From assembly GCA_016432445.1 (NCBI GenBank), contig CP066689.1:480001-512000 (forward strand): a DNA stretch of 32,000 nt, read 5' to 3'. Numbering within the stretch: position 1 is the stretch's first letter; every line of letters begins with the position of its first letter. A model generated the notes under the pieces. The model was not told the DNA's origin. It made no database searches and was given only the letters and a program-made list of their open reading frames with translations. Source of the DNA: Candidatus Saccharimonadota bacterium (GTDB lineage: Bacteria; Patescibacteriota; Microgenomatia; UBA1406; GWC2-37-13). A program made the position numbers and the translations under genes. Shown piece after piece: positions 3,305-32,000 of this stretch.

Positions 3305-4149
3305 GAGTGATGAAAAATTTGGCCAAACCGTTTAAGTCTAGAAGGATGAGTTAGAGAATAGGCTTTTCTATAAGCTTCTTGTTCCTCGCGGTCCCAAACC
3401 AATTCTTCTCCTTCTCTAAATTGGTATTGACGTTCTTCAGGGAATAACTGATTCATTGATTCTAAGATACATTTAGCGACCGCCTCTAATTTCTCTTCCC
3501 TAGTTTTAGCTTCTTTTAATTTTTGATTAAAATTAATTGGATCACCTACAATCACTTTTATTTTACGCGGCCTAGGAAACCATTTACCAGGCGGTAGAGT
3601 TTTATATGTACCTATTTCAGCAATAGGAATGATTGGAATGTTTATTGCTGAGGCAAGTTTTGTTAACCGTGCTACTCCTTTATCAACCTTTGTTAATCGT
3701 CCATCTCTTGATCGTGTGGCTCCATAAGCAATACAAACATTTGATCCTTGTTTCAAAGTGTCAATTATGATGTTTGAGGTATCGGCATCATTGCCATCTC
3801 TATTGACGGGTAAAGCGCCGCGGGCTCTTAAAATACTTCCTAAGATAGGAACTTTAAAATATGAAGCTTTGGCTGGGAATTTAGTTAAAGGTCTATAAGG
3901 ATCAGCGATCCACAAGCCAGGGACAACATCTTCTAAACTGAAGTGTGAAGTTAAATATAGCGCTGGTCCAGTGGGTGGATATTTTTCATTAGGCGCTTCA
4001 ATGCGGTGATAAATAGTACTTGCTGCTCCAAGAAGTGCCATTCCAAGCATCATTCCGTAATTACCTGAATATTGTCTGTAGCGTTCCTTAATGCTTCTGC
4101 CGTATTTTATGGCTTTCCCAGATGTTCCCAGTTCTGCTTGAGGTGGCAT
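3280..4149 (-). CDS. PlsC-like lysophospholipid/glycerol-phosphate acyltransferase family protein
   Basis: The HX4D acyltransferase motif is present (HFSLED), and AYGATRSRDG resembles the FPEGTRS block. The 3' end overlaps apt convergently by 25 nt. Confidence 0.7.
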   Translation of the reverse strand: MPPQAELGTSGKAIKYGRSIKERYRQYSGNYGMMLGMALLGAASTIYHRIEAPNEKYPPTGPALYLTSHFSLEDVVPGLWIADPYRPLTKFPAKASYFKVPILGSILRARGALPVNRDGNDADTSNIIIDTLKQGSNVCIAYGATRSRDGRLTKVDKGVARLTKLASAINIPIIPIAEIGTYKTLPPGKWFPRPRKIKVIVGDPINFNQKLKEAKTREEKLEAVAKCILESMNQLFPEERQYQFREGEELVWDREEQEAYRKAYSLTHPSRLKRFGQIFHHSHSPSKAT

Positions 4150-5514: not shown

Positions 5515-7467
5515 ATGATAATCAATATGACAGATGAAAAGTTAAATTTATCAAATCCCGTTCTTCCTGACTCAGACGGATATAGGTTACAAACACTTGC
5601 TACTCATTTTGAAAAGAGAAAACCTTATTTTGAAAAAATATGGAAAGAAAAAACTCAGACTTTAATCAATCAGCAACCTCAAGTCGGAGATGGTGAAATA
5701 AATTACGTTCTTTGCGGTTCCAATGTTTATACAGCCTTAGCTATTGCTGATAAATCAGAAGAGATTGTAGTTAAAGATGGAAAGGTTGAAAAAAGAGCAG
5801 TCCAAGTATCACCTTTAACTAAAGCTGGTTTGACAATACCTTTGCTTATTCCCGGAGATGTGGATGCGGTTTCAATAAAGGAAAATTTTGATTTAAAAAT
5901 GCCTTTTGATGTTTCAAAACCTTCCACCAGTTTATTTTGGAAATGTATGCCTGAAGGTATGAGAATGATGGTTCATAGTATAAATGGACAAGAAGTATAT
6001 ACGGTTCATCCTGTTGATAATTTTGTCTTCAGACTAGTAGCCCAATTCATTGGGGGAAGTGACCATTCAATAGATAAAATACCTAAAAAACTTGATCAAA
6101 TTTTGAGATCTTTATCCGAAACATGGTCAATGTCTGAGATTAGGCAAAGAGCGATTGAAGCAATAAAGGCATTAAGTGGTTATAGACAACTGTCAAATGA
6201 ATCTATACAGAAGAGTAAATTTCTCATTGACTTGAATATGAATCAGCCAATTCAATATGAGTCAGAAATAAATGTTGAAGATTTCTTACCATCGACGTAT
6301 GGTCCTTTAAAATTTGCAAGAGAAAGAGGATTAACTGATGAACTTCCAACTTTAACGAATTTTCTTGATTCTCTCTCAGGTTCACATGAAAATGTTTCTA
6401 AAGAATCTCGCGCAGCACGGATAACCAATTACTTAAACTCAAATGAATATATTGATAAGCTTCAAAGATTTGATGAACGACATCGATCAGAAGTAATTGG
6501 ATTAACCACTGAGTATTTTATTCTTCATCCAGATGGTCAAGGCGCTGATGATTTTGTTAGAGATCTTCAAAAGGTAGATTTAGGGGATTATGAAAAGGAT
6601 CATAAAATTTCTAAATTATTAGCTGATTCAATTGCTCAAAGATTAGGAATAAATGACGTGACATCAAGAGAGGCAGTAGAACAAATATATAATTACTACT
6701 TAGATAGTGTCATTGTAAATGGAGTTTATTTTCATAGTTTTAATGGCGCTTTTGAATTATCAATAAGAGCAAATGGTTTAACTACAGATCAACGATTATG
6801 GGACTGGGAAGAATTAAGAAGAATAAGCGAGATTGGGGAAAAAACTGGACGAAGTATGTTATTAGGATGGGGATCACTAAATTCAAAAGGTAATATTTCC
6901 TATGCCTCAACTACGAGAGATTCATATAGGTATGCTGTAGCTTCTCCAGAATGGTTTGCGCAGTTTGTAAGTGAGGGTTTTCATATTCCCAATAATGAGC
7001 CTCAAAAAAAAGCATATTACAGAGGTGATTATGAACAGGCAAAACAAAATATTGAAGAATTATGTAATAAGATGCAATCTTCTCGACAAGAAGACATAGA
7101 TGCTCGAAAGTCTTATTCTAATATCTCAATGGAAGAACGAACGGAAATTCTTAGTTTCTTTGAGAAATATTGGAAAGTGTTTAGAGGAACAAATAGTCAG
7201 CCTTGTTTAGCATTGATTAATTGCAGTATGTTTGATGATGATCCAGTAAATTATCCAGCGCATGTAAAAGAAGATTTTGGTTCTTTAACAGAATATGTAC
7301 GAGATTATATGCACAGTGCTGGTAATAATCCTAAAGTTTTTGAGATAATTAAAAGTTTAAGATACAATATTAGTGGTGGTGTTGACAAACAAACCGAAGT
7401 TAATATTTCTCCTGAAGAAATAGAAATTGTGAAGCTACCTGAATATTCAAAAGTCTTTCCTAAATGA
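5515..7467 (+). CDS. Hypothetical protein, about 646-650 aa, with no recognisable motif
   Basis: This is a long uninterrupted ORF with host-like composition. No signal peptide or TM segment is visible. The alternative start ATG 5527 is favoured if the TATACT box at 5509-5514 is the promoter. Confidence 0.6.
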   Translation: MIINMTDEKLNLSNPVLPDSDGYRLQTLATHFEKRKPYFEKIWKEKTQTLINQQPQVGDGEINYVLCGSNVYTALAIADKSEEIVVKDGKVEKRAVQVSPLTKAGLTIPLLIPGDVDAVSIKENFDLKMPFDVSKPSTSLFWKCMPEGMRMMVHSINGQEVYTVHPVDNFVFRLVAQFIGGSDHSIDKIPKKLDQILRSLSETWSMSEIRQRAIEAIKALSGYRQLSNESIQKSKFLIDLNMNQPIQYESEINVEDFLPSTYGPLKFARERGLTDELPTLTNFLDSLSGSHENVSKESRAARITNYLNSNEYIDKLQRFDERHRSEVIGLTTEYFILHPDGQGADDFVRDLQKVDLGDYEKDHKISKLLADSIAQRLGINDVTSREAVEQIYNYYLDSVIVNGVYFHSFNGAFELSIRANGLTTDQRLWDWEELRRISEIGEKTGRSMLLGWGSLNSKGNISYASTTRDSYRYAVASPEWFAQFVSEGFHIPNNEPQKKAYYRGDYEQAKQNIEELCNKMQSSRQEDIDARKSYSNISMEERTEILSFFEKYWKVFRGTNSQPCLALINCSMFDDDPVNYPAHVKEDFGSLTEYVRDYMHSAGNNPKVFEIIKSLRYNISGGVDKQTEVNISPEEIEIVKLPEYSKVFPK

Positions 7468-10076: not shown

Positions 10077-10671
10077 AAAATTTATAAATCTAAACAAAAC
10101 TAGATTAGAGAACCTTGTTTTTGATAAGGCCGGTGAGTATGTGATTTTTTTTCATAACCTTTCCGGAAAATTTAATTTTGAGATAAGATCAAGCGGAGTT
10201 GATGTGAATATATTTGGATTATTTACCGGTAAAAATAATGATGAGTTTAAAGTTGAGACAGTTCAGCATCATTTATTTCCAGACTCATCATCTAATCTTT
10301 TAATAAAGGGCGTGTTTGAGGATGAGTCAAAGTTAGGTTATCATGGATTAATAAAGATTGAAAAAGAGGGAAAAGGCAGTCATGCCTATCAAAAAAATCA
10401 AAACCTTATTTTATCGCCTCAAGCTTTCGTTGAGTCCAAGCCCTATTTAGAAATTATGGCGAATGATGTTTATTGCACTCATGGATCAACAATTGGGCGG
10501 TTGAATAAGGATGAGATTATTTATCTTCAAAGCCGGGGGATTGATCAAAAATCAGCTGAAAAATTATTAGTTGAAGGGTTTATAGATGAGTTATTTGATA
10601 AGATAAAGATAAAATTCCCCGCCCTTCGGGCACCCCTTTTACAAAAAGGGGAAAAATTCTCCTCTTTCTAA
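10051..10671 (+). CDS. sufD: Short SufD-like protein (SufBD C-terminal beta-helix region only)
   Basis: It sits between sufB and sufS. The blocks AYQKNQNLILS..A.V.SKPYLEI.ANDV.CTHG.TIG.L and YLQSRGI....AEKLLVEGF parallel the SufB C-terminus in this window. At 206 aa it is unusually short, and the last 16 aa are encoded by a hairpin repeat. Confidence 0.75.
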   Translation: MSNQYLKSKKFINLNKTRLENLVFDKAGEYVIFFHNLSGKFNFEIRSSGVDVNIFGLFTGKNNDEFKVETVQHHLFPDSSSNLLIKGVFEDESKLGYHGLIKIEKEGKGSHAYQKNQNLILSPQAFVESKPYLEIMANDVYCTHGSTIGRLNKDEIIYLQSRGIDQKSAEKLLVEGFIDELFDKIKIKFPALRAPLLQKGEKFSSF

Positions 10672-10677
10672 GAGGAG
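10621..10677. repeat. Cluster of three GC-rich short hairpin modules
   Basis: The modules are gccc-ttc-gggc (10621-10631), cccctttt-aca-aaaagggg (10633-10651) and ctcctct-ttcta-agaggag (10659-10677). The same module types recur at 30891-30982. Confidence 0.8.
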
Positions 10678-10716
10678 TACCTGAACGTAGTGAAGGGGAG
10701 GAATTTTAAAATCATT

Positions 10717-11943: not shown

Positions 11944-11947
11944 TATG

Positions 11948-12017
11948 AAATCCAAATATCAAAATCCCAATGTCAAAAAAATTCATTTGGCATTTGATAT
12001 TTGAAATTTAGATTTTT
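11948..12017. repeat. 7-nt-phased inverted repeat array in the sufS-sufU spacer
   Basis: The units are aaatcca aatatca aaatccc aatgtca aaaaaat tcatttg gcatttg atatttg aaattta gattttt. The left and right halves are near reverse complements. It belongs to the same caaatgtcaaa family as 513-575. Confidence 0.8.
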
Positions 12018-12020
12018 ATT

Positions 12021-12398: not shown

Positions 12399-12403
12399 AA
12401 TAA

Positions 12404-12673
12404 ATGAGTCAACTTAAAGATTCTCAAAATCCTTCAGGCCCAGTTGTCATTGGCAAATTAAAAGTGACAGTAGACAGAAATATCTGTATAGGAGCCAGCA
12501 CCTGCGTGGCCATTGCTTCCAAAACTTTTGAACTTGATACTGAGGCTAAAGCCGTAATTTTAAACTCTGCAGGACAAGACCCCGAAGAAATAGTTTTAAA
12601 TGCAGCTAAAGTATGTCCTGTAGCGGCCATTACTATTGAGAATGAAAAAGGAGAGAAAGTTTACCCAAAATAA
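12404..12673 (+). CDS. Small single-cluster ferredoxin
   Basis: The pattern VDRNICIGASTCVAIASKTFELD ... CPVAAITIE is the C-x5-C ... CP arrangement of small mono-cluster ferredoxins. Confidence 0.75.
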   Translation: MSQLKDSQNPSGPVVIGKLKVTVDRNICIGASTCVAIASKTFELDTEAKAVILNSAGQDPEEIVLNAAKVCPVAAITIENEKGEKVYPK

Positions 12674-12682
12674 TAATTAATA

Positions 12683-12738
12683 GTTCTGGGTTTTGAGTTT
12701 TGAGCCCATAACCCATAACTCACAACTCATAACTAATT
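12683..12738. repeat. 7-nt-phased inverted repeat array in the ferredoxin-korA spacer
   Basis: The units are gttctgg gttttga gttttga gcccata acccata actcaca actcata actaatt. The array ends exactly at the korA ATG. The left units are largely complementary to actcaca/actcata. Confidence 0.8.
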
Positions 12739-14460: not shown

Positions 14461-14463
14461 ATC

Positions 14464-14519
14464 GATTCACGATTCATGATATAAGATTCATGAATCATAA
14501 ATCGTAAATCTTGAATCAA
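14464..14519. repeat. 7-nt-phased inverted repeat array in the korA-korB spacer
   Basis: The units are gattcac gattcat gatataa gattcat gaatcat aaatcgt aaatctt gaatcaa. The outer units are complementary at 15 of 17 positions. Confidence 0.8.
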
Positions 14520-14523
14520 TATT

Positions 14524-17918: not shown

Positions 17919-18946
17919 ATTCTTCTTTTTATCTGCAGGAATATATTTCTTAGTTTATTGAGTACGTTATAGAGCCTATAAAGTTTATTGTTTATCACTA
18001 GGTCAAAAGTGCCCATCATTTGTATATAGTCTCCTCCATAGCCTTCTTTAAACTTAGTGAATCCAACATAATCATCATTTCCCTGGTAATTAGGTGCTAA
18101 TGAACCCCACATATCAAAATTTTCGGCTCCTAGTTTTTTTCCTAGTTTGATAGCTTCCCACATCAAAAGATTAGCTCCCATTAAATTACGGTGCTTTAAA
18201 GATGAACCGCCGTAAGCATAGTAAAGAGTTTTGTTGAAATAAAAAAGTTCGTAAGCGGCAAGAGGAGTATTTTCATAATAGGCAATTAAAATATGGGAAA
18301 GATCATTTTTAAGAGTTTCCCAAACTGTTTTATGATAATCAGGATTGTGTCCAAAATATCCTTGACGGCGGCAGGTATCGAAGTAAAGTTTACTGAAAAT
18401 TTCAAAGCCTTGATCTGTAGATTCTTCTTTGACCATGACGCCTTTTTTTTCAGCTAGTCTTATATTGTATCTAGTTTTTTGTTTCATTTTGGCCAGAAGT
18501 TCCTCCTCTGTTTGTTTCAAATCAAGTAAGATTGTCCATTCTGTGAAGAGAGGTTGAGGGGATTTTATTATCGTTGATCTTAGATCTAAGATCTTAGATC
18601 TTTGAGCAATTGTTTCATTAGGTTCGAGTTTTATGAATATAACATTATTTTTTTTGCCAAGATCGGTTAAAAAATCCACAACTTCTTGTGAAGGAAAATT
18701 GGATTTTGGTAGATATCCTACTTTATAGGACGTGTATGGGATTTTGTGTAGGGTTAATTGATAAACGTTTTGTAGGGACAGGTCGCGACCTGTCCTTACA
18801 TCATTATTTTCAAATTCACCAATCCTAACAACCTTAATGCCCATTTTTTTCCTGGCTTCGCCCCACTGCCAAGATTGCAAAGGATGAGGGGCTTTTTGGT
18901 TATACAATTCCTGATCAAAATCAGATCCAATTATCTTAACGTCCAT
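17915..18946 (-). CDS. FemAB/FemX-family peptidoglycan aminoacyltransferase
   Basis: Blocks typical of the FemAB family are present: [23 protein letters not shown] and FDMWG. The start is placed at ATG 18946. The track start at 19012 would overlap the upstream GT4 gene. Confidence 0.8.
18576..18605. repeat. AGATCT-based 7-nt-phased palindrome inside the FemX-like CDS
   Basis: The sequence is gatcttagatctaagatcttagatctttga. The 20-nt perfect palindrome agatctaagatcttagatct is at 18582-18601. Positions 18582-18605 are identical to intergenic 29453-29476. It encodes RSKILDLRS. Confidence 0.85.
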
Positions 18947-26349: not shown

Positions 26350-26421
26350 GCTAGGATAGCTCAGTGGTAGAGCAATCGTTTCATAAGCGATCGGTCGGGA
26401 GTTCGATCCTCCCTCCTAGCA
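26350..26421 (+). tRNA. tRNA with anticodon CAU (elongator Met or lysidine-modified Ile2 type); CCA not encoded
   Basis: I folded the cloverleaf by hand. The acceptor stem is GCTAGGA/TCCTAGC, the D arm is GCTC-AGTGGTA-GAGC and the anticodon arm is ATCGT-TTCATAA-GCGAT. The variable loop is CGGTC, the T arm is GGGAG-TTCGATC-CTCCC and the discriminator is A. The G1-C72 pair and an anticodon stem lacking three G-C pairs argue against an initiator. Confidence 0.9.
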
Positions 26422-26481: not shown

Positions 26482-27030
26482 ATGCAAATAACTAAAGATG
26501 ATCTGATTCAGGATATAAAAATTGAAGTATTTACTCAAAAATACGGCGCTAAACCAACAATAGATGGGCTTAAAATAATTGAACTTAAAAAATTCTCTGG
26601 TGAGGATGGAACGTTTGAAGAGCTTTTAAGGATTAATGATCAAGGTAATTTGGAGATCTTTCCTGATTTTCATTTAATGCAGGTCAATAGATCAAAACTT
26701 CTTCCAGGGGCGATCAAAGCTTGGCACATTCATCTTAATCAAGAGGATATTTGGTATGCTGATCCTGAAGATCATATGCTTTTAGGTTTATGGGATATAA
26801 GAGAAGATTCATCAACAAAAAATACAAAATTTAAATTAGTCTTAGGAGCAGGAGTATCGAGGTTAGTTTATATTCCGCGGGGAGTGGCTCATGGAGTAGT
26901 TAATATTTCCAATAATCCAGGCACAGTTATTTACTTCGTTAACAAACAATTTAACATTCAGTCACCTGATGAATATCGACTTCCTTGGGATAAGATAGGT
27001 AAAGAATTTTGGGAATGCGAAAAAGCTTAA
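26482..27030 (+). CDS. RmlC-like cupin (dTDP-4-dehydrorhamnose 3,5-epimerase family)
   Basis: Present are AWHIHLNQEDIWY, the LWDIRE..S.T block and YIPRGVAHGV, the pattern of RmlC-type epimerases/isomerases. The exact specificity cannot be determined from sequence. Confidence 0.6.
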   Translation: MQITKDDLIQDIKIEVFTQKYGAKPTIDGLKIIELKKFSGEDGTFEELLRINDQGNLEIFPDFHLMQVNRSKLLPGAIKAWHIHLNQEDIWYADPEDHMLLGLWDIREDSSTKNTKFKLVLGAGVSRLVYIPRGVAHGVVNISNNPGTVIYFVNKQFNIQSPDEYRLPWDKIGKEFWECEKA

Positions 27031-29264
27031 TGCGGTACTGGTGTAGGGGTTGGATCATGAGCGCAGTCTACGCAATATATTGAATAATCGTCTTTCATAA
27101 TTGTTTTCTCTTTCATCTCAATGTCAGGTTCTCCTGGTTGAGCTAGTTTATCAGTATTTTTATTAACCGGCACAGGTTCTCGTTTTACCGTTACAGATTG
27201 TTTATCTTCTGTGCCTTTGATAAAGTACTCAAACCGCGATGAGCAGTTCTCTTTACCTTCCTGATCTTTTGACGCTAATTTTCCTGTATCATTGCAGACT
27301 TGTTTACCAATGATTGTGTCAGGCATTATCGGCCAGAGGTCAGGCTGATCTTTTAAAATATAATTCATTATTTTATTCCAGATTGGAGCGGCACCTGTAA
27401 TTCCAGAGGTCAGGTATTGATTCATTGGACTGCCGTCATTATTGCCGACCCAGACTGCAGTTAAAAAGTTTGGAGTGTAACCAATTGTCCAATTATCTTT
27501 TTTATCATCAGTGGTTCCGGTTTTTACAGACACAGCTTTTTTAGGAATGACTAAAAAAGAAGATGACCCAAAGGCTTGGGCGCGTGCATTATTATCCAAA
27601 AGGATATGTGAGATTAGAAATGAAGTTTCTACAGAGATTGATTTTTTCCCAGGAATTGCCAGAAAGTTTGGATAAATTAATGGTTTATGAATATCTTTTA
27701 CAAAATTAAAGTCTTTAAATTCATAAAGTTTTTTTCCTATTTTATCCTGAACATCTAAAATAGCGTTAAGTGTACGTGGTTTGCCTCGGTTAGAAAATGC
27801 AGAAAAAGCCTGAGCAAGTTCAGTCATTCTCACTTCTCCTCCACCTAAGGTCAGGGCTAACCCATAACGTTGAGGATCTTTAAATGAGGTGATCGTAAAA
27901 GCTGAGGATGAGGCAACAAAATTATCAACGCCATTTATTGCCAGCATTTTCACAGCAGGAACATTGTAGGAGCTGCCAAGAGCAAATCTTAACTGAACGG
28001 GTCCATGAAAGATGCCGTCATAATTAACCGGGCAGTAAGGTTGAGGAATACTTTTAAAACAGGTTTTGGCATCTAAGAAAACTGTCGCTGGCGTGACTAG
28101 CTGACGATCGATTCCAATTGCATAATTGATAGGTTTAATAGCTGATCCCGGCTGTCTTAAACTTGTAGTTACATTAAAAGCGCCTGAAGGGGTGGCAAAA
28201 TAATCTTGCGATCCAACCATAGCTAAAATTTCTCCGGTTGTTGGACGGGTTACTAAAACTGCTCCATTGGAAACATTCAAGCCTTCCAATTTTTCGATTT
28301 CTTCTTTTAAAATTTTCTCAGCCTGTTCTTGGATGTCTAAGTCTAACGTAGTATAAACTCTTAAGCCTCCCTGCTCAATTTGATCAACATCATACTTTTC
28401 TTCAAGCAGGCTTTTAACATAAAAAACAAAATGAGGAGCTTTAATATTAATTTTAGGAGGAACGACAGTAACTGGTTTTGCTGACTGTTCTTTTCGTTTC
28501 TTTTCATCCATATACTTTTGTTCCTTCATTTTTTTTAACACCTCATTCCTCCTGGTTTTGGCAATGTCGGGATTATAGTGGGGAGAGTAAAGTGAAGGAG
28601 CCTGAGGTAGACCGGCGAGCAATGCTGCTTCATCTAAAGTTAACTCTTTTGCTTGTTTACCAAAATAAGTCCGAGTTGCTTCTTCAATACCATAGGAAGA
28701 ACCTCCATAAGCAACCTGATTTAAGTACATTTCCAAAATTTGATCTTTGGTATACATTCTTTCCGCCCAAATTGCCAGGATGATTTCTTTTATTTTTCTT
28801 TGGATAGTTCTTTCAGGAGTAAGAAGAGCGCTTTTAATAAGCTGCTGAGTTAAAGTTGAACCGCCTTGAAGATTTTTTTTAAGAATAGTATCTTTTATGG
28901 CCCTAAAAATTCCTGAGATAAAAGAGATTCCTCCATGACGGTAAAAATCTTTATCCTCAATAGCGATAGTGGCTTTGGCAATATAAGGCGGAAGATCTTT
29001 AAGTTTAACAGGAGTTCTGTTTTCGTCTTTATAAACTTCGTAAAGCAGTTTGCCATTGCGGTCATAAATGTGAGTTGATAAAGGTGTAGATCTATAATCT
29101 TTTAATTTAGATGGTGAAGGAAGATTATAAAAAATGAAAAAATAGATAAAGATCAAAAAACCCAGCAAAGGAACAACGGTCGCGAGTAAAAATTTGTAAT
29201 TTAAGAGGACTTTTTTAACATTTATGGCTTTTAATTTCTGCAGTAAATTTTTCCAAAATTCCAT
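27027..29264 (-). CDS. Class A penicillin-binding protein (PBP1A: GT51 transglycosylase plus transpeptidase)
   Basis: An N-terminal TM anchor is present. The GT51 motifs are IAIEDKDFYRHGGI, GGSTLTQQL and RKIKE. The transpeptidase motifs are SAIKP (SxxK), SYN (SxN) and KTGTT. A C-terminal tail of about 90 aa contains 4 Cys. Confidence 0.92.
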   Translation of the reverse strand: MEFWKNLLQKLKAINVKKVLLNYKFLLATVVPLLGFLIFIYFFIFYNLPSPSKLKDYRSTPLSTHIYDRNGKLLYEVYKDENRTPVKLKDLPPYIAKATIAIEDKDFYRHGGISFISGIFRAIKDTILKKNLQGGSTLTQQLIKSALLTPERTIQRKIKEIILAIWAERMYTKDQILEMYLNQVAYGGSSYGIEEATRTYFGKQAKELTLDEAALLAGLPQAPSLYSPHYNPDIAKTRRNEVLKKMKEQKYMDEKKRKEQSAKPVTVVPPKINIKAPHFVFYVKSLLEEKYDVDQIEQGGLRVYTTLDLDIQEQAEKILKEEIEKLEGLNVSNGAVLVTRPTTGEILAMVGSQDYFATPSGAFNVTTSLRQPGSAIKPINYAIGIDRQLVTPATVFLDAKTCFKSIPQPYCPVNYDGIFHGPVQLRFALGSSYNVPAVKMLAINGVDNFVASSSAFTITSFKDPQRYGLALTLGGGEVRMTELAQAFSAFSNRGKPRTLNAILDVQDKIGKKLYEFKDFNFVKDIHKPLIYPNFLAIPGKKSISVETSFLISHILLDNNARAQAFGSSSFLVIPKKAVSVKTGTTDDKKDNWTIGYTPNFLTAVWVGNNDGSPMNQYLTSGITGAAPIWNKIMNYILKDQPDLWPIMPDTIIGKQVCNDTGKLASKDQEGKENCSSRFEYFIKGTEDKQSVTVKREPVPVNKNTDKLAQPGEPDIEMKEKTIMKDDYSIYCVDCAHDPTPTPVPH

Positions 29265-29272
29265 AAATATAA

Positions 29273-29281
29273 ATTTTAGCA
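29273..29281 (-). promoter_or_regulatory. Extended -10 element (TGcTAAAAT) 8 nt upstream of the PBP1A ATG
   Basis: The minus strand reads ctgcTAAAATttatatttATG. There is no SD. Confidence 0.5.
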
Positions 29282-29296
29282 GAAAAGATAAATTAT

Positions 29297-29326
29297 GTTC
29301 GTAGTTCGTCGTTAGGAGTTCGTCGA
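29297..29326. repeat. Tandem heptamers gttcgta gttcgtc gttagga gttcgtc
   Basis: The 7-nt phasing is read directly from the sequence. It is the same unit as in the GT4 CDS at 19485-19505. Confidence 0.75.
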
Positions 29327-29351
29327 CCCTGGAATGTTAACCTATAGCAGT

Positions 29352-29380
29352 TTGACTTCAATTTTTACTTTTGTTAGAAT
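29352..29380 (+). promoter_or_regulatory. Strong orphan promoter: TTGACT-N17 (with TGn)-TAGAAT
   Basis: TTGACT is at 29352-29357, TGt at 29372-29374 and TAGAAT at 29375-29380. No start codon lies within 100 nt downstream of the predicted TSS. The next plus-strand CDS starts at 29740. Confidence 0.6.
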
Positions 29381-29442
29381 GGGACTTTCTATAAAGCACT
29401 TTGACAATCTATTTAACTCGTGGGGAGGAAATCTGAAGCAAT

Positions 29443-29484
29443 CTAACATCAAAGATCTAAGATCTTAGATCTTTGATCTGAGAT
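29443..29484. repeat. Six 7-nt-phased units containing a 26-nt perfect palindrome
   Basis: The units are ctaacat caaagat ctaagat cttagat ctttgat ctgagat. The perfect palindrome caaagatctaagatcttagatctttg is at 29450-29475 and contains three AGATCT sites. Confidence 0.85.
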
Positions 29485-29573
29485 GAAATTAAACTTTAAG
29501 AAGTTTTTAAAAGCATAAAATCTAAATAGAGTTTGAGATTTTAGATTGTATCAGGCTCGTCTCCTCACGGAAA

Positions 29574-29699
29574 GATTGGTTGATGGCTTATTGGAGATTT
29601 AGTCGTGAGTCGTTAGTCATGAGTCGAGAGAAAAAAAATCTTAAGACGAATGACTCAAGTCTCAAGACTCTTAAGTATCCAGCAAGCCATCAATCAGTC
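29574..29699 (+). other. Imperfect hairpin of about 125 nt immediately upstream of the cassette's first gene
   Basis: The outer helix pairs 29574-29594 with 29679-29699: 17 Watson-Crick pairs, 3 G-U pairs and 1 mismatch over 21 positions. The inner arms are heptamer arrays, agtcgtg agtcgtt agtcatg agtcgag (29601-29628) and gactcaa gtctcaa gactctt (29652-29672). Confidence 0.6.
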
Positions 29700-29739
29700 A
29701 AAGACTGAAAATTTTAAAGATGGAGGGAAAGGAAAGACA

Positions 29740-30273
29740 ATGGAAAAGGTAATTAACAAATTGGTGATCAGCAGTACTTCAGCAGTTCGGCTAACCGACG
29801 ATTATCAAAAGGGGGTCACGCTTCAACGGTTGTCTGAGAAGAACAGCCCTTACGTAATTCAGGTTAAAAAGGGTGAGGCTGACGTCGTAGTTGCGTTTGA
29901 AGTGTCAGGATTAGTAGGTGACGATGTTGTCTGCTATTCTGGAAGAAGGACCTACCGAAAGGGGAAGGAGATCGATACGGACTTGGGTCTTGGCTGGTTC
30001 ATCGGGACGCTCAACTCTCGTACTCAAGTTAAGGTCAGTCTATCACTTTTCCACCCAGCCTATTTTGAGCATGACGTGGAAGTCAGCGCGAACGGAATTG
30101 CATACATTAAGCCAAGTTGGCAGGGTGAGATTGTCTACGAGATGTCGGTGGCAGAAGATGCTGCTTTACCACCATTTCCTCGTATACCGATTGAGGATCT
30201 TGTTCAAGGGGAACAGATTAAGTATCTGCGCAACACCGATGACGTAATAAGACGGGAAAAAGATACCGGGTAA
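29740..30273 (+). CDS. Hypothetical protein A of the GC-rich cassette (177 aa from ATG 29740)
   Basis: The ORF sits in a region of about 50% G+C. SD-like GGAGGG (29722-29727) and AAGGAAAG lie upstream of ATG 29740. The first 30 codons of the track ORF (29650-29739) fall in the hairpin/repeat region and are probably non-coding. No recognisable motif is present. Confidence 0.6.
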   Translation: MEKVINKLVISSTSAVRLTDDYQKGVTLQRLSEKNSPYVIQVKKGEADVVVAFEVSGLVGDDVVCYSGRRTYRKGKEIDTDLGLGWFIGTLNSRTQVKVSLSLFHPAYFEHDVEVSANGIAYIKPSWQGEIVYEMSVAEDAALPPFPRIPIEDLVQGEQIKYLRNTDDVIRREKDTG

Positions 30274-30316
30274 GAGTTGCCGACAATCTAATATTAAGTG
30301 AAAGGAGGTGATGAAA

Positions 30317-30787
30317 ATGGCGCACTTGGATATTCAAGAGGGCGATACACTGATCATCAAAGTGCGGCAAGAGGGCGATCAGCGTTTTGTATTCGAAGGG
30401 ATACTGAGAAAGGAAAGAGCTTTTGGTTTTGGGCTGAGAACAGAGACTCAGCTTGAAGCAGGCTTGACACTCTTGGTAGTGATTGAACTGCTTGATGATC
30501 CAGTAGGATCTGGTGATCATGAGTATGCAACAGTCACGAAAAGAAAGGCTTATGTGCCAAGCCGCCGCAAACCATGCTGGCTAGGCAGCCTGGTTATACC
30601 GCTCTTCAAACGCACCTACCAAGTTCCGGCTCTGATCAAAATGTTCCGCATTCAGGAAGAACTCCTTACGGAAGAATTCCTTCGCCGTGTGGAAGAAAGT
30701 GGAAGCGTGGACGAAGTAAAGTATCCGATGATATGGAATGTGTATTTTGAGCGGGCTAGTTCACGAGTGAAATCGGCAGAGGTATAG
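30317..30787 (+). CDS. Hypothetical protein B of the GC-rich cassette (156 aa from ATG 30317)
   Basis: AAAGGAGGTGAT at 30301-30312 is a 12-nt match to the canonical anti-SD complement. Its GGAGG core ends 8 nt before ATG 30317. Composition is the same GC-rich type as protein A. No recognisable motif is present. Confidence 0.65.
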   Translation: MAHLDIQEGDTLIIKVRQEGDQRFVFEGILRKERAFGFGLRTETQLEAGLTLLVVIELLDDPVGSGDHEYATVTKRKAYVPSRRKPCWLGSLVIPLFKRTYQVPALIKMFRIQEELLTEEFLRRVEESGSVDEVKYPMIWNVYFERASSRVKSAEV

Positions 30788-30822
30788 CCGACAAGTTAGC
30801 GGAGGCGAGCAAAAACATAGGC

Positions 30823-30883
30823 GCCGGGGGTGATGGTATGAGTTGACATTCAACTCAAACATTATCCTCCGGCCATTTTTTTT
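30823..30883 (+). terminator. Intrinsic terminator of the cassette
   Basis: The GC-rich outer stem is gccggggg (30823-30830) paired with cctccggc (30866-30873, one G-U pair). The inner stem is tgagttga/tcaactca. A run of eight T follows at 30876-30883. Confidence 0.7.
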
Positions 30884-30890
30884 GTTAAAA

Positions 30891-30982
30891 ACACCTCCCC
30901 CCTTCGGGGTACTCCTCTTACAAAGAGGAGAAGTTAAATCCCCTCTTGCAAGAGGGGTGGCCAGCTCAGCTGGCCGGGGTGT
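30891..30982. repeat. Cluster of four GC-rich hairpin modules closed by an outer stem; on the minus strand it ends in a T-run and probably terminates metG
   Basis: The modules are cccc-ttc-gggg (30899-30909), ctcctct-tacaa-agaggag (30912-30930), cccctctt-gc-aagagggg (30940-30957) and ggccagc-tca-gctggcc (30959-30975). The outer stem pairs acacc.. (30891-) with ggggtgt (30976-30982). The modules are shared with 10621-10677. Confidence 0.8.
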
Positions 30983-30983
30983 T

Positions 30984-32000
30984 TTATATTCTAGGAAATA
31001 AGGGCGGGGATTTTTTTATTTTTCCTTGAGTAGATTGCATTATTTTTTCCGCGGTTTCGGGTAAAAATATCTGAAGCCAATATGTTCTTTTTCTAATTTC
31101 TTTCAAGTAGCGTCGCAAGTAAGGCATAATTTGATCTTTTTCTAGATTCCAAGGTTCATCTCTGTTGATTTCACCGTTTATTGATTTAAAATCTCTCCAT
31201 AATTCTTCTAAGGCAAGATTAAATTCGAATCGATTAAGATGATCAATAAATCCTCCAGTATTAAGAGTTGCAGGTAAAGAGGTATCTTCTTTTTCTGGTA
31301 AAAAGGTTACTTCATTTTGTTCACAAAGATTCGTAACTCGTGATATTAAGTTTCCCAAAACATTGGCTAAATCAGAATTATAAACTTCTTCCATGCGCCG
31401 GTAAGAGAAATCTCCATCATCAAACGGGGGAATTTCTTTTAATAAAAAATACCGGACTGCATCAGTTCTATATTTCCTAACCAGATCAACAGGATTAATT
31501 ACATTACCAAGACTTTTACTGATTTTCTGACCATCGGAAGTTACAAATCCATGAATAATTATTTGTTTTGATGTCGGCAGACCGGCTGACATAAGCATCG
31601 CCTGCCACATAGCTGACTGCTGTCGCAGATTATCTTTTCCGGCAATTTGAATTGCATTAGGGTTTTTGTGTGAACCCCACCATTGATCAAATTCATTAGG
31701 TTTACCCGGCGAAGCTTTAGCGGAGTCGGGCCAACCAAGCGTTGATATGTAATTAACTAAAGCATCAAACCAAACGTACATAACATGTTCAGGGTCTCCA
31801 GGTACATTTACTCCCCAAGGCATCTTACTTTTAAGTCTTGAAATACTAAAATCTTCAAGTCCATTCTCAACAAAATTTTTTATCTCTTTCAACCTAAAAT
31901 CTGGTACTACAAATTGTGGATTTTTTTCATAAAGTTCCAATAGCTTTTGCTGATATTTTGAAAAACGGAAAAAATAATTTTCTTCTTCAATAATCTCAAG
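30984..32000 (-). CDS. metG: Methionyl-tRNA synthetase, C-terminal portion; the 5' end lies beyond the window
   Basis: The frame stays open to position 32000 (..LEIIEEENYFFRFSKYQQKLLELYEKNP..). Present are YVWFDALVNYIS and the KMSKS-type motif (KISKS in GQKISKSLGN). Confidence 0.9.
   Translation of the reverse strand, partial: LEIIEEENYFFRFSKYQQKLLELYEKNPQFVVPDFRLKEIKNFVENGLEDFSISRLKSKMPWGVNVPGDPEHVMYVWFDALVNYISTLGWPDSAKASPGKPNEFDQWWGSHKNPNAIQIAGKDNLRQQSAMWQAMLMSAGLPTSKQIIIHGFVTSDGQKISKSLGNVINPVDLVRKYRTDAVRYFLLKEIPPFDDGDFSYRRMEEVYNSDLANVLGNLISRVTNLCEQNEVTFLPEKEDTSLPATLNTGGFIDHLNRFEFNLALEELWRDFKSINGEINRDEPWNLEKDQIMPYLRRYLKEIRKRTYWLQIFLPETAEKIMQSTQGKIKKSPPLFPRI

Follow-up and report, generated by a model that had tools for sequence, protein, structure and literature searches.

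The stretch of DNA analyzed here, referred to as the window, comprises 32,000 nucleotides. At positions 29740-30885 it harbors a cassette of two plus-strand genes, A (177 amino acids) and B (156 amino acids), which lie on the strand opposite to that of both neighbors, metG and PBP1A (Table 1). The two genes are separated by 43 nt, do not overlap, and B has an independent Shine-Dalgarno (SD) sequence. The genes around the cassette encode glycosyltransferases, PBP1A, methionine-tRNA ligase, S15, and PNPase, and there are no phage genes close by.

Table 1. Features of the cassette and its surroundings (positions in the window)
Feature	Positions	Strand	Details
PBP1A	27027-29264	-	Left neighbor; transglycosylase and transpeptidase
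Candidate sigma-70-like promoter	29352-29380	+	TTGACT, 17 nt, TAGAAT; TG precedes the -10 box
Long imperfect hairpin 1 of the leader	29418-29571	+	Core is a GATCT-heptamer palindrome (29441-29484)
Long imperfect hairpin 2 of the leader	29574-29699	+	Arms from 7- and 14-nt repeats (TTAGTCGTGAGTCG, two copies)
SD of ORF A	29722-29727	+	GGAGGG; 12 nt before ATG; duplex -9.8 kcal/mol
ORF A	29740-30273	+	177 aa; HYW86_02710 (NCBI locus tag), hypothetical protein
SD of ORF B	30302-30311	+	AAGGAGGTGA; GGAGG-to-ATG 8 nt; duplex -12.9 kcal/mol
ORF B	30317-30787	+	156 aa; soluble, pI 6.2; without genuine homologue
Intrinsic terminator	30823-30883	+	Imperfect 24-nt-arm hairpin (30823-30873), CA, T8 (30876-30883)
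Host-type four-hairpin element	30886-30978	-	metG orientation; immediately follows the metG stop codon
metG	30984-32000	-	Right neighbor; methionine-tRNA ligase; extends past the window end

An earlier, sequence-only reading of this DNA had described two plus-strand ORFs of about 177 and 156 aa between minus-strand genes, and the ORF calls and their orientation agree with this description. The product of A is soluble, has a pI of 5.3, and is rich in valine. An alternative start at 29650 would extend A to 207 aa but lacks a ribosome-binding site, and a 158-aa form of B merely reflects another start call. Paralogy between A and B was considered and rejected, since neither the BLASTP E value of 0.01 nor the Smith-Waterman score, which was equaled in 35 of 3000 shuffles, is significant. 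Single-sequence AlphaFold2 predictions yielded unusable models, with a pLDDT of 30 for A and a pLDDT of 45 and pTM of 0.43 for B. When the poor model of B was submitted to Foldseek, no match at E <= 0.001 was obtained in either PDB or BFVD; the best E values were 0.72 and 0.044, TM-scores did not exceed about 0.3, and these hits were treated as noise.

Several observations indicate that A and B are real coding sequence. Both lie in open frames on the same strand, 190 and 161 codons long, and in dinucleotide-preserving shuffles the second-longest frame reached 156 codons or more in only 5 of 5000 cases. At codon position 1, a G frequency of 0.37-0.39 and a T frequency of 0.14-0.16 are seen solely in the called frames of A and B. 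RNA structure inside the ORFs is no better than that of shuffles (z = 0.12 and -1.42), and no Rfam family was detected at the gathering score, whereas E-value thresholds returned hairpin-type noise only. The length of the open frames, their codon-position periodicity, and the absence of surplus RNA structure jointly support this conclusion. As for the integrity of the assembly, no fewer than five Logan contigs, all from different sequencing runs, cross both junctions of the cassette, and three shorter contigs are available in addition. All are 100% identical across 29200-31100, and one contig was reported in 9 samples. Read mapping over the junctions had been proposed as a check on a chimeric assembly; since at least five separately assembled contigs cross both junctions at 100% identity, a chimera is excluded. 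Among the available contigs neither strain variation nor an empty site was found, all of them carrying the insert.

The cassette had been called compositionally foreign from hand counts of a few lines, and the comparison of its G+C content, GC3, and codon usage with the rest of the window bears this out. The analysis covered the 32-kb window and 4 kb from L001, out of a genome of 1.10 Mb. The G+C content of genes A and B amounts to 46-48% vs 35% in the other 27 ORFs. In 400-nt windows, values of 0.44-0.48 were obtained over 29601-31000 and of about 0.29-0.43 in the rest of the window. The maximum-likelihood G+C-rich segment corresponds to 29763-30981 (48.2% vs 35.1%), and the best 1200-nt window has a G+C content of 0.474, the maximum outside the cassette being 0.402 (mean 0.350, sd 0.024). 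The GC3 values of the two cassette ORFs are 0.466 and 0.469, as compared to 0.14-0.34 among the remaining 27 ORFs that are 100 aa or longer. Codon choice differs sharply as well: the cassette has an AAA:AAG ratio of 0.43:0.57 and a TTA fraction of 0.07, the host values being 0.84:0.16 and 0.40.

A clear contrast also exists at the level of translation signals. SD strength was assessed as the duplex energy against a generic anti-SD sequence and compared with that of 26 host genes in the window. Both cassette genes possess a canonical SD, which was found in none of the 26 host genes. On the same energy scale, 25 of these 26 genes are weaker than -6.5, and the single exception, at 10690, is a doubtful start within a repeat hairpin. 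The difference is thus stronger than originally claimed. In 7 of the 26 host genes, a -10 box is located 3-12 nt ahead of the start codon, as compared to 7.5% of random positions. Host starts appear to be SD-less and often leaderless-looking.

The sequence upstream of A is of a different nature. The candidate sigma-70-like promoter matches the consensus at 10 of 12 positions, a level at which shuffles of the region contain 3.7 sites on average, and is located in AT-rich host-type DNA, some 360 nt ahead of ORF A; its assignment to the cassette is accordingly a putative one. The leader that follows (29385-29745) has a predicted folding energy of -121.7 kcal/mol (z = -10.2) and contains two long imperfect hairpins. 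The GATCT palindrome in the first is a host-type repeat with a second copy at 18576-18605, and the second is AT-rich and likewise of host-type style. At the other end, the GC-rich stem followed by a T8 run that had been reported as the cassette's own terminator is present as described. The adjacent four-hairpin element shares 79% identity with its counterpart at 10610-10708, and there are 5 compensatory pairs between the two; the element lies outside the foreign block, forms its right border, and contributes to the G+C peak. The proposal that host-type repeats bracket the cassette was confirmed in part, by the recurrences at 18576-18605 for the left side and at 10610-10708 for the right side. 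When the four-hairpin element was searched for with a covariance model, neither the window nor L001 nor the loci of 16 relatives yielded a further copy.

Comparison with related genomes provides the main evidence that the cassette was inserted. In all six informative relatives, metG and PBP1A are adjacent and co-directional, with metG being first, at spacings of -4 nt (L039), 5 nt (L094), 20 nt (L092), 69 nt (L008), 77 nt (L006), and 180 nt (L090). The corresponding gap in this genome is 1,719 nt. Given that the six relatives range from a 4-nt overlap to 180 nt, the gap is due to a lineage-specific insertion. A relative closer than 69% MetG identity was not present in the database. The absence of an integrase or transposase, noted before, also holds for the flanks, with none called over about 9 kb in one direction and 5 kb in the other. 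The search for terminal repeats or a target-site duplication returned only short repeats at chance level (10-of-11 matches), and no donor of the cassette was found in phage, plasmid, viral-contig, metagenome, and protein searches.

Taken together, we consider it probable, at roughly 0.8, that the region from about 29720 to 30885 represents a bicistronic transcription unit that was acquired recently and by horizontal transfer, inserted between metG and PBP1A on the opposite strand in one Roizmanbacteria lineage. The suggestion of a small, self-contained, horizontally acquired two-gene module is therefore well supported: five independent lines of evidence agree, namely composition and codon usage, SD sequences, terminator, orientation, and the relatives, and among these the adjacency of metG and PBP1A in six relatives is foremost. 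Our best guess is that it is accessory cargo whose source was a mobile element or phage not yet sampled. If selection acts on the unit at all, its most plausible role would be that of a two-protein conflict module, either of the toxin/immunity or the anti-phage type. Transcription would probably start at the sigma-70-like promoter and proceed through a hairpin-rich leader of about 350 nt made up of host-type repeats. Both cistrons would then be translated by SD-dependent initiation, in the style of the donor rather than that of the host, giving rise to two soluble, probably cytoplasmic, orphan proteins, and the hairpin-T8 terminator would end transcription before an antisense run into metG. 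The insertion would also have uncoupled PBP1A from metG. PBP1A now apparently relies on its own promoter beside its ATG, and a TGnTAAAAT box located 8 nt ahead of this ATG could be such a promoter, of the leaderless type.

The orphan status of both proteins is based on an extensive set of searches. No match for A or B at E <= 1 was obtained in Pfam, NCBIfam, and PADLOC, including none to the known anti-phage systems represented by the profile HMMs of PADLOC-DB 2.0. In PHROGs, nothing was obtained beyond three matches with E values of about 0.3, all to families without a known function. The lack of a recognizable domain, as stated in the sequence-only reading, was thus corroborated. The 207-aa form of A as well as alternative-frame and antisense ORFs had no match in Pfam either. 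A word-indexed search of 5.8 billion proteins with A and B retrieved self-hits only. With B only, 1.84 billion representatives were searched exhaustively by HMMER, which retrieved B itself and three further hits but no genuine relative; these three proteins (5162, 745, and 579 aa) are internally repetitive, align over 3-15 short stretches, and were judged spurious. The best E value in a PDB sequence search with A and B was 0.15, which is not significant. At the translated level, too, no relative of A or B was found, whether among 50,697 phage records and 72,556 plasmids or in IMG/VR and the metagenome contigs of JGI, nor was there a match in INPHARED.

Several other explanations need to be weighed against the one favored above. 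The block may be recent passenger DNA that is functionless in this cell, derived for example from uptake by a competent episymbiont, in which case its intactness would simply reflect its recency. That neither composition nor translation signals have been ameliorated is in line with this idea, as are the absence of homologues anywhere searched, the lack of mobility genes, and the zero variation among contigs, which gives no sign of selection. The complete absence of relatives from very large databases is unusual for bona fide toxin-antitoxin or defense genes and suits passenger DNA equally well. However, both genes would have to have been captured exactly and untruncated, each with its start, SD, and stop and together with the terminator, and every contig assembled across the locus contains the insert, one of these contigs being reported in 9 samples. 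We therefore regard this explanation as possible but unlikely.

Small, self-contained, foreign two-gene units are often conflict systems, and the cassette had been attributed to a toxin-antitoxin, abortive-infection/defense, or phage-derived module. This attribution received no positive evidence, as the PADLOC, PHROGs, Pfam, NCBIfam, and phage, plasmid, and metagenome searches were empty. That A and B form a functional two-protein conflict system (toxin-antitoxin, abortive-infection, or other anti-phage), with one protein as effector and the other as neutralizer or sensor, would fit a small foreign two-gene operon with a tight spacing of 43 nt and its own terminator, and the upstream palindromes could act as operators. 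Yet these palindromes are host-type repeats with copies elsewhere rather than cassette-specific operators, the lengths of 177 and 156 aa exceed those of typical type II pairs, and the profile searches described above provided nothing beyond PHROGs matches at E of about 0.3. Furthermore, A and B are without relatives, whereas known toxin-antitoxin and defense families are widely dispersed. On balance, this possibility appears improbable. A more specific version is more doubtful still, according to which A and B are an undescribed conflict module from an unsampled mobile pool whose perfect SDs ensure privileged or specially regulated translation; such translation would follow from the host's own genes being SD-less.

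Genomes of the CPR contain many lineage-specific hypothetical proteins, and given that the nearest sampled relative shares just 69% MetG identity, orphan status is less surprising; A and B might be native, fast-evolving genes whose odd composition reflects special expression demands instead of transfer. This is highly improbable, since there is nothing between metG and PBP1A in six relatives, GC3, codon choice, and SD use all set A and B apart from the remaining genes of the window, and a GC3 of about 0.27 with no SD is already the pattern in all 26 window genes. G+C-rich islands of AT-rich genomes are often RNA genes, but the interpretation of the block as a large structured non-coding RNA, or else as a chimeric assembly join, is hardly tenable and was largely refuted: the G+C peak within an AT-rich genome and the very strong structure of both flanks (z = -10.2 and -7.2) stand against junctions that are identical among contigs assembled separately from different runs, ORF interiors that fold like shuffles, the lack of an Rfam family at threshold, and long same-strand open frames with codon-position periodicity.

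This locus is a clean, datable-looking case of horizontal gene uptake into the reduced genome of an episymbiotic CPR bacterium, in which foreign DNA still has the G+C content, codon usage, and SD-led initiation of its donor inside an apparently SD-less host and splits metG and PBP1A, a tight pair in relatives. If expressed, A and B represent two new protein families without known fold or function and raise the question of how such a cell handles SD-led mRNAs. If not expressed, the cassette is a snapshot of passenger DNA prior to decay, which would be unsurprising in itself and could serve as a calibration case for the detection of transfer into CPR. Should the conflict-module interpretation be true, it would provide a new pair of protein families along with natural foreign translation signals in a largely SD-independent cell.

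Parallels to known systems exist to different degrees. Integron gene cassettes likewise carry small orphan ORFs that are compositionally foreign, with a long imperfect palindrome behind them. In contrast to these, inspection of the palindrome at 30808-30890 revealed no RYYYAAC...GTTRRRY core sites, and there is neither an integron integrase nor a cassette array. An attC site was rejected because 30788-30890 contains no core-site pair, the stem instead pairing CAAAAA with TTTTTG before the T8 run, as is typical of a terminator. Type II toxin-antitoxin operons also consist of two close, same-strand genes in a self-contained unit with palindromes upstream. Unlike them, A and B have no Pfam, NCBIfam, PADLOC, or PDB sequence match to a toxin or antitoxin family, are larger than typical members, and are separated by a gap of 43 nt with an independent SD instead of overlapping, and the palindromes are generic host repeats.

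Phage "morons," a concept of Hendrix and Juhala, are defined by a G+C content unlike that of their neighbors, their own promoter, and their own terminator (reviewed in PMC3594210). The architecture of the cassette would correspond to that of a moron in a bacterial chromosome instead of a prophage. Shared features are the additional DNA separating two genes that lie side by side in relatives (1,719 nt vs -4 to 180 nt), the deviating G+C content (48.2% vs 35.1%; GC3 of 0.47 vs 0.14-0.34), and the self-contained organization with a clear terminator. A promoter of its own would be a further parallel, the candidate for it being a consensus match. The cassette differs in that it is located among chromosomal housekeeping genes, without phage genes nearby or a match in phage databases, and in that its candidate promoter lies in host-type DNA outside the foreign block. 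ORFan genomic islets, finally, are likewise short and consist of compositionally atypical, lineage-restricted, homologue-less genes without mobility genes. The cassette is an event of this ordinary kind with an unusually clean signature: what distinguishes it from other such islets is that its recipient is a reduced CPR genome and that the contrast between its SD-led genes and the SD-less, leaderless-looking genes of the host is unusually clean.

The G+C-rich block between PBP1A and metG in the window is best explained as a foreign and genuine coding insertion, to which we assign a probability of about 0.8. The G+C content of the whole window is 35.3%, and values of 0.44 to 0.48 were found in 400-nt windows over 29601-31000, versus approximately 0.28 to 0.43 elsewhere. 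A two-state likelihood fit delimited a G+C-rich segment at 29763-30981 (48.2% versus 35.1%), and in 1,200-nt windows the cassette peaks at 0.474, as compared to a maximum of 0.402 and a mean of 0.350 (SD, 0.024) elsewhere. The block (approximately 29720-30885) comprises, in this order, a Shine-Dalgarno (SD) site, ORF A, a 43-nt spacer carrying a second SD site, ORF B, and a terminator. The SD site of A is GGAGGG, 12 nt upstream of the ATG, and that of B is AAGGAGGTGA, with GGAGG 8 nt from the ATG; their duplexes with a generic anti-SD sequence have -9.8 and -12.9 kcal/mol, respectively, whereas 25 of the 26 host genes are weaker than -6.5 kcal/mol, the sole exception being a doubtful GTG start within a repeat hairpin. 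A start-independent motif scan, with a spacing limit of 4 to 12 nt that the 13-nt spacing of A just exceeds, found GGAGG in start-codon register at a gene head for B only, all other matches being gene-internal. The sequence-only reading had described two plus-strand ORFs between minus-strand housekeeping genes, both with strong SD sites that host genes lack, followed by their own GC-rich stem and T8 terminator, and all of these features were recovered.

Features of the cassette, its flanks, and the four-hairpin repeat element (window positions)
Feature	Position	Strand	Remarks
Four-hairpin element, copy 1	10610-10708	+	Overlaps 3' end of SufBD-like gene, sense orientation
PBP1A (left neighbor)	27027-29264	-	Intact
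Best promoter-like site	29352-29380	+	TTGACT-17-TAGAAT, TG extension; candidate by consensus
Long imperfect hairpin 1	29418-29571		Left flank
Long imperfect hairpin 2	29574-29699		Left flank
ORF A	29740-30273	+	177 aa
ORF B	30317-30787	+	156 aa
Terminator	30823-30873	+	Imperfect hairpin with 24-nt arms, then T8 at 30876-30883
Four-hairpin element, copy 2	30886-30978	-	3' end of metG, sense orientation; right flank 30886-30983 (98 nt)
metG (right neighbor)	30984 to beyond window end	-	Intact

The locus was compared with the PBP1A loci of GTDB species representatives and with the contigs that carry the most similar MetG proteins. Wherever a relative has both genes on one contig, metG is located directly upstream of PBP1A on the same strand, and these relatives share a wider synteny in which metG, itself followed by PBP1A, is preceded by oppositely oriented FtsK, PNPase, and S15 genes that face it. 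The two genes overlap by 4 nt (ATGA, 5917-5920) in L039, a Roizmanbacteria locus with a PBP1A identity of 68%, and are separated by 5, 20, 69, 77, and 180 nt in the related Microgenomates loci L094, L092, L008, L006, and L090, respectively. They probably form an operon in the relatives, and the ATGA overlap suggests that translation of a tRNA ligase and of a cell-wall synthase is coupled in L039. In the window, the gap amounts to 1,719 nt between two intact genes, and the intervening genes are oppositely oriented; judged by gene order, the cassette is a lineage-specific insertion. Close dating of the insertion is not possible: even the best MetG match in a search of 5.8 billion proteins has an identity of only 69%, and the contigs covering the locus revealed no empty-site variant. 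No integrase, transposase, or phage gene was identified within approximately 9 kb on one side and 5 kb on the other, in agreement with the initial impression that no integrase or transposase accompanies the cassette, and no convincing case of terminal inverted repeats or a target-site duplication was found at the insertion.

The sole database match of ORF A was the identical NCBI protein HYW86_02710, annotated as [quoted passage not shown], which places the window in a genome of the Candidate Phyla Radiation (CPR; Microgenomates). Searches of Pfam, NCBIfam, PADLOC, and PHROGs with A and B returned nothing at an E value of ≤1 except three function-unassigned PHROGs matches (E of about 0.3), consistent with the earlier remark that neither protein carries a recognizable catalytic, DNA-binding, TM, or signal motif. 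A word-indexed search of 5.8 billion clusters retrieved only A and B themselves, a PDB sequence search gave no significant match, and translated searches of INPHARED phages, PLSDB plasmids, IMG/VR, and JGI metagenome contigs revealed no relative of either. With B as the query, an exhaustive HMMER search of 1.84 billion representatives found only B itself and three internally repetitive proteins (P0003 to P0005; E values of 3.6e-14 to 1.1e-5). The latter were judged spurious as homologues, since they are highly repetitive and matched through many (3 to 15) short stretches; summed repeat scores can imitate homology for orphan queries. Paralogy of A and B was also rejected: the BLASTP E value was 0.01, but 35 of 3,000 shuffles scored as high. 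Single-sequence AlphaFold2 models were unusable (pLDDT of 30 for A and 45 for B), and Foldseek with the low-pLDDT model of B gave nothing at an E value of ≤0.001. By default, A and B may be regarded as new protein families.

The block is probably a self-contained bicistronic unit of foreign origin, acquired recently, that has retained the composition and SD-led initiation of its donor in a host whose genes in the window lack SD sites. Morons are characterized by a different G+C content and their own promoter and terminator, and are added between otherwise adjacent genes (PMC3594210). The cassette resembles them in architecture, with its different G+C content, terminator, candidate promoter, and position between genes that are adjacent in relatives, but it does not reside in a phage, so that it may be said to work like a moron rather than be named one. 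The estimate for the main reading concerns the nature of the DNA; two of the alternatives are roles within it and two are alternatives to it, and the estimates do not sum to 1. Among the roles, passenger DNA and a selected function appear about as likely as each other, and we consider functionless passenger DNA a possible, if minority, explanation; A and B have so far shown no sign of remarkable activity. Rather doubtful is a conflict module (toxin-antitoxin, abortive infection, or defense). Such a module, or a phage-derived one, had been suggested initially, and gained no positive support from the PADLOC, PHROGs, and phage-record searches; that no relative turned up at all speaks mildly against a widespread system. 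That A and B form a new two-protein conflict module that exploits SD-led translation in a host largely devoid of SD sites has a slimmer chance still. Horizontally acquired orphan islets are of a known and common kind; the signature of this one is unusually clean, and it is found in a CPR genome.

It is very improbable that A and B are native genes. Their GC3 values are 0.466 and 0.469, versus 0.14 to 0.34 in every one of the 27 other ORFs that have 100 aa or more, and synonymous codon choice is shifted throughout the cassette relative to the host (AAG, 57% versus 16% of Lys codons; TTA, 7% versus 40%, and CTG, 23% versus 6% of Leu codons). As initially proposed, the cassette is compositionally foreign: G+C, GC3, and codon choice all set it apart from the rest of the window. 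Both proteins have a composition ordinary for soluble proteins (pI of 5.3 and 6.2), with less Lys, Asn, and Ile and more Arg and Val than host proteins.

Least probable of all is that the G+C-rich block is an artefact or RNA, against which stand junction-spanning contigs, coding periodicity, and ORF interiors without extra structure. At least 5 Logan contigs, assembled from as many sequencing runs, extend across both junctions and contradict chimerism; 3 further, shorter ones cover the region in part, none of these contigs differs from the window over 29200-31100 (100% identity), and one 17-kb contig was reported in 9 samples. Two frames of the region, both on the same strand, stay open for 190 and 161 codons, and the second-longest frame reached 156 codons in only 5 of 5,000 dinucleotide-preserving shuffles. 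The periodicity universal to coding sequence is present in the called frames (position 1 G, 0.37 to 0.39, and T, 0.14 to 0.16; position 2 G, low) and absent from all other frames and strands. A large structured RNA was rejected, because the interiors of the ORFs show no more structure than shuffled sequences (z = 0.12 and -1.42) and Rfam at gathering score matched only a tRNA-Met at 26350 in the window; below threshold, the only matches were hairpin-type ones to microRNA models, in the flanks.

The host genes in the window have no SD sequence, and 7 of the 26 possess a TATAAT-like -10 box (consensus base at 5 or all 6 positions) 3 to 12 nt upstream of the start codon, versus 7.5% of random positions; in 4 of these 7, a perfect TATAAT is located 6 to 8 nt upstream. 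These boxes suggest that leaderless mRNAs are widespread in this Roizmanbacteria genome. The host gene starts considered include those at 4149, 5500, 21247, 26315, and 29264 on the minus strand, and a TGnTAAAAT box is found 8 nt upstream of the PBP1A ATG.

The cassette is flanked on the right by a copy of an element of approximately 95 nt with four hairpins and a closing long-range stem (AAAAYNCC...GGNRTTTT). Its two copies share 79% identity, and 5 of the 31 pairs predicted are compensatory. No Rfam family matches the element, and a covariance-model search detected no further copy in the window, in 4 kb of additional sequence of the same genome, or in the loci of 16 relatives. In copy 1, the stop codon of the SufBD-like ORF falls within the hairpin 3 loop, and the C terminus of that protein is thus supplied by the element. 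The 455 nt on the left (29265-29720) are AT-rich (31 to 36% G+C), of host type, with 7- and 14-nt tandem repeats and a fold z-score of -10.2 over 29385-29745. The GATCT palindrome at 29441-29484 has a second copy at 18576-18605, which falls within a called ORF, and similar AT-rich hairpins occupy other host intergenic regions. These regions are largely filled by imperfect hairpins of tandem heptamer repeats (AAATTTC, GATTCAC/GATTCAT, and AGATCTA/AGATCTT) and their complements, as at 11944-12020, 14461-14523, 18576-18605, 29297-29324, 29441-29484, and 29599-29626. The 340 nt at 12399-12738, between two plus-strand genes, contain no called ORF that reaches 100 aa and have a G+C content of 0.37 and an MFE of -75.5 kcal/mol. 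Intergenic hairpins often reach exactly from the stop of one gene to the start of the next.
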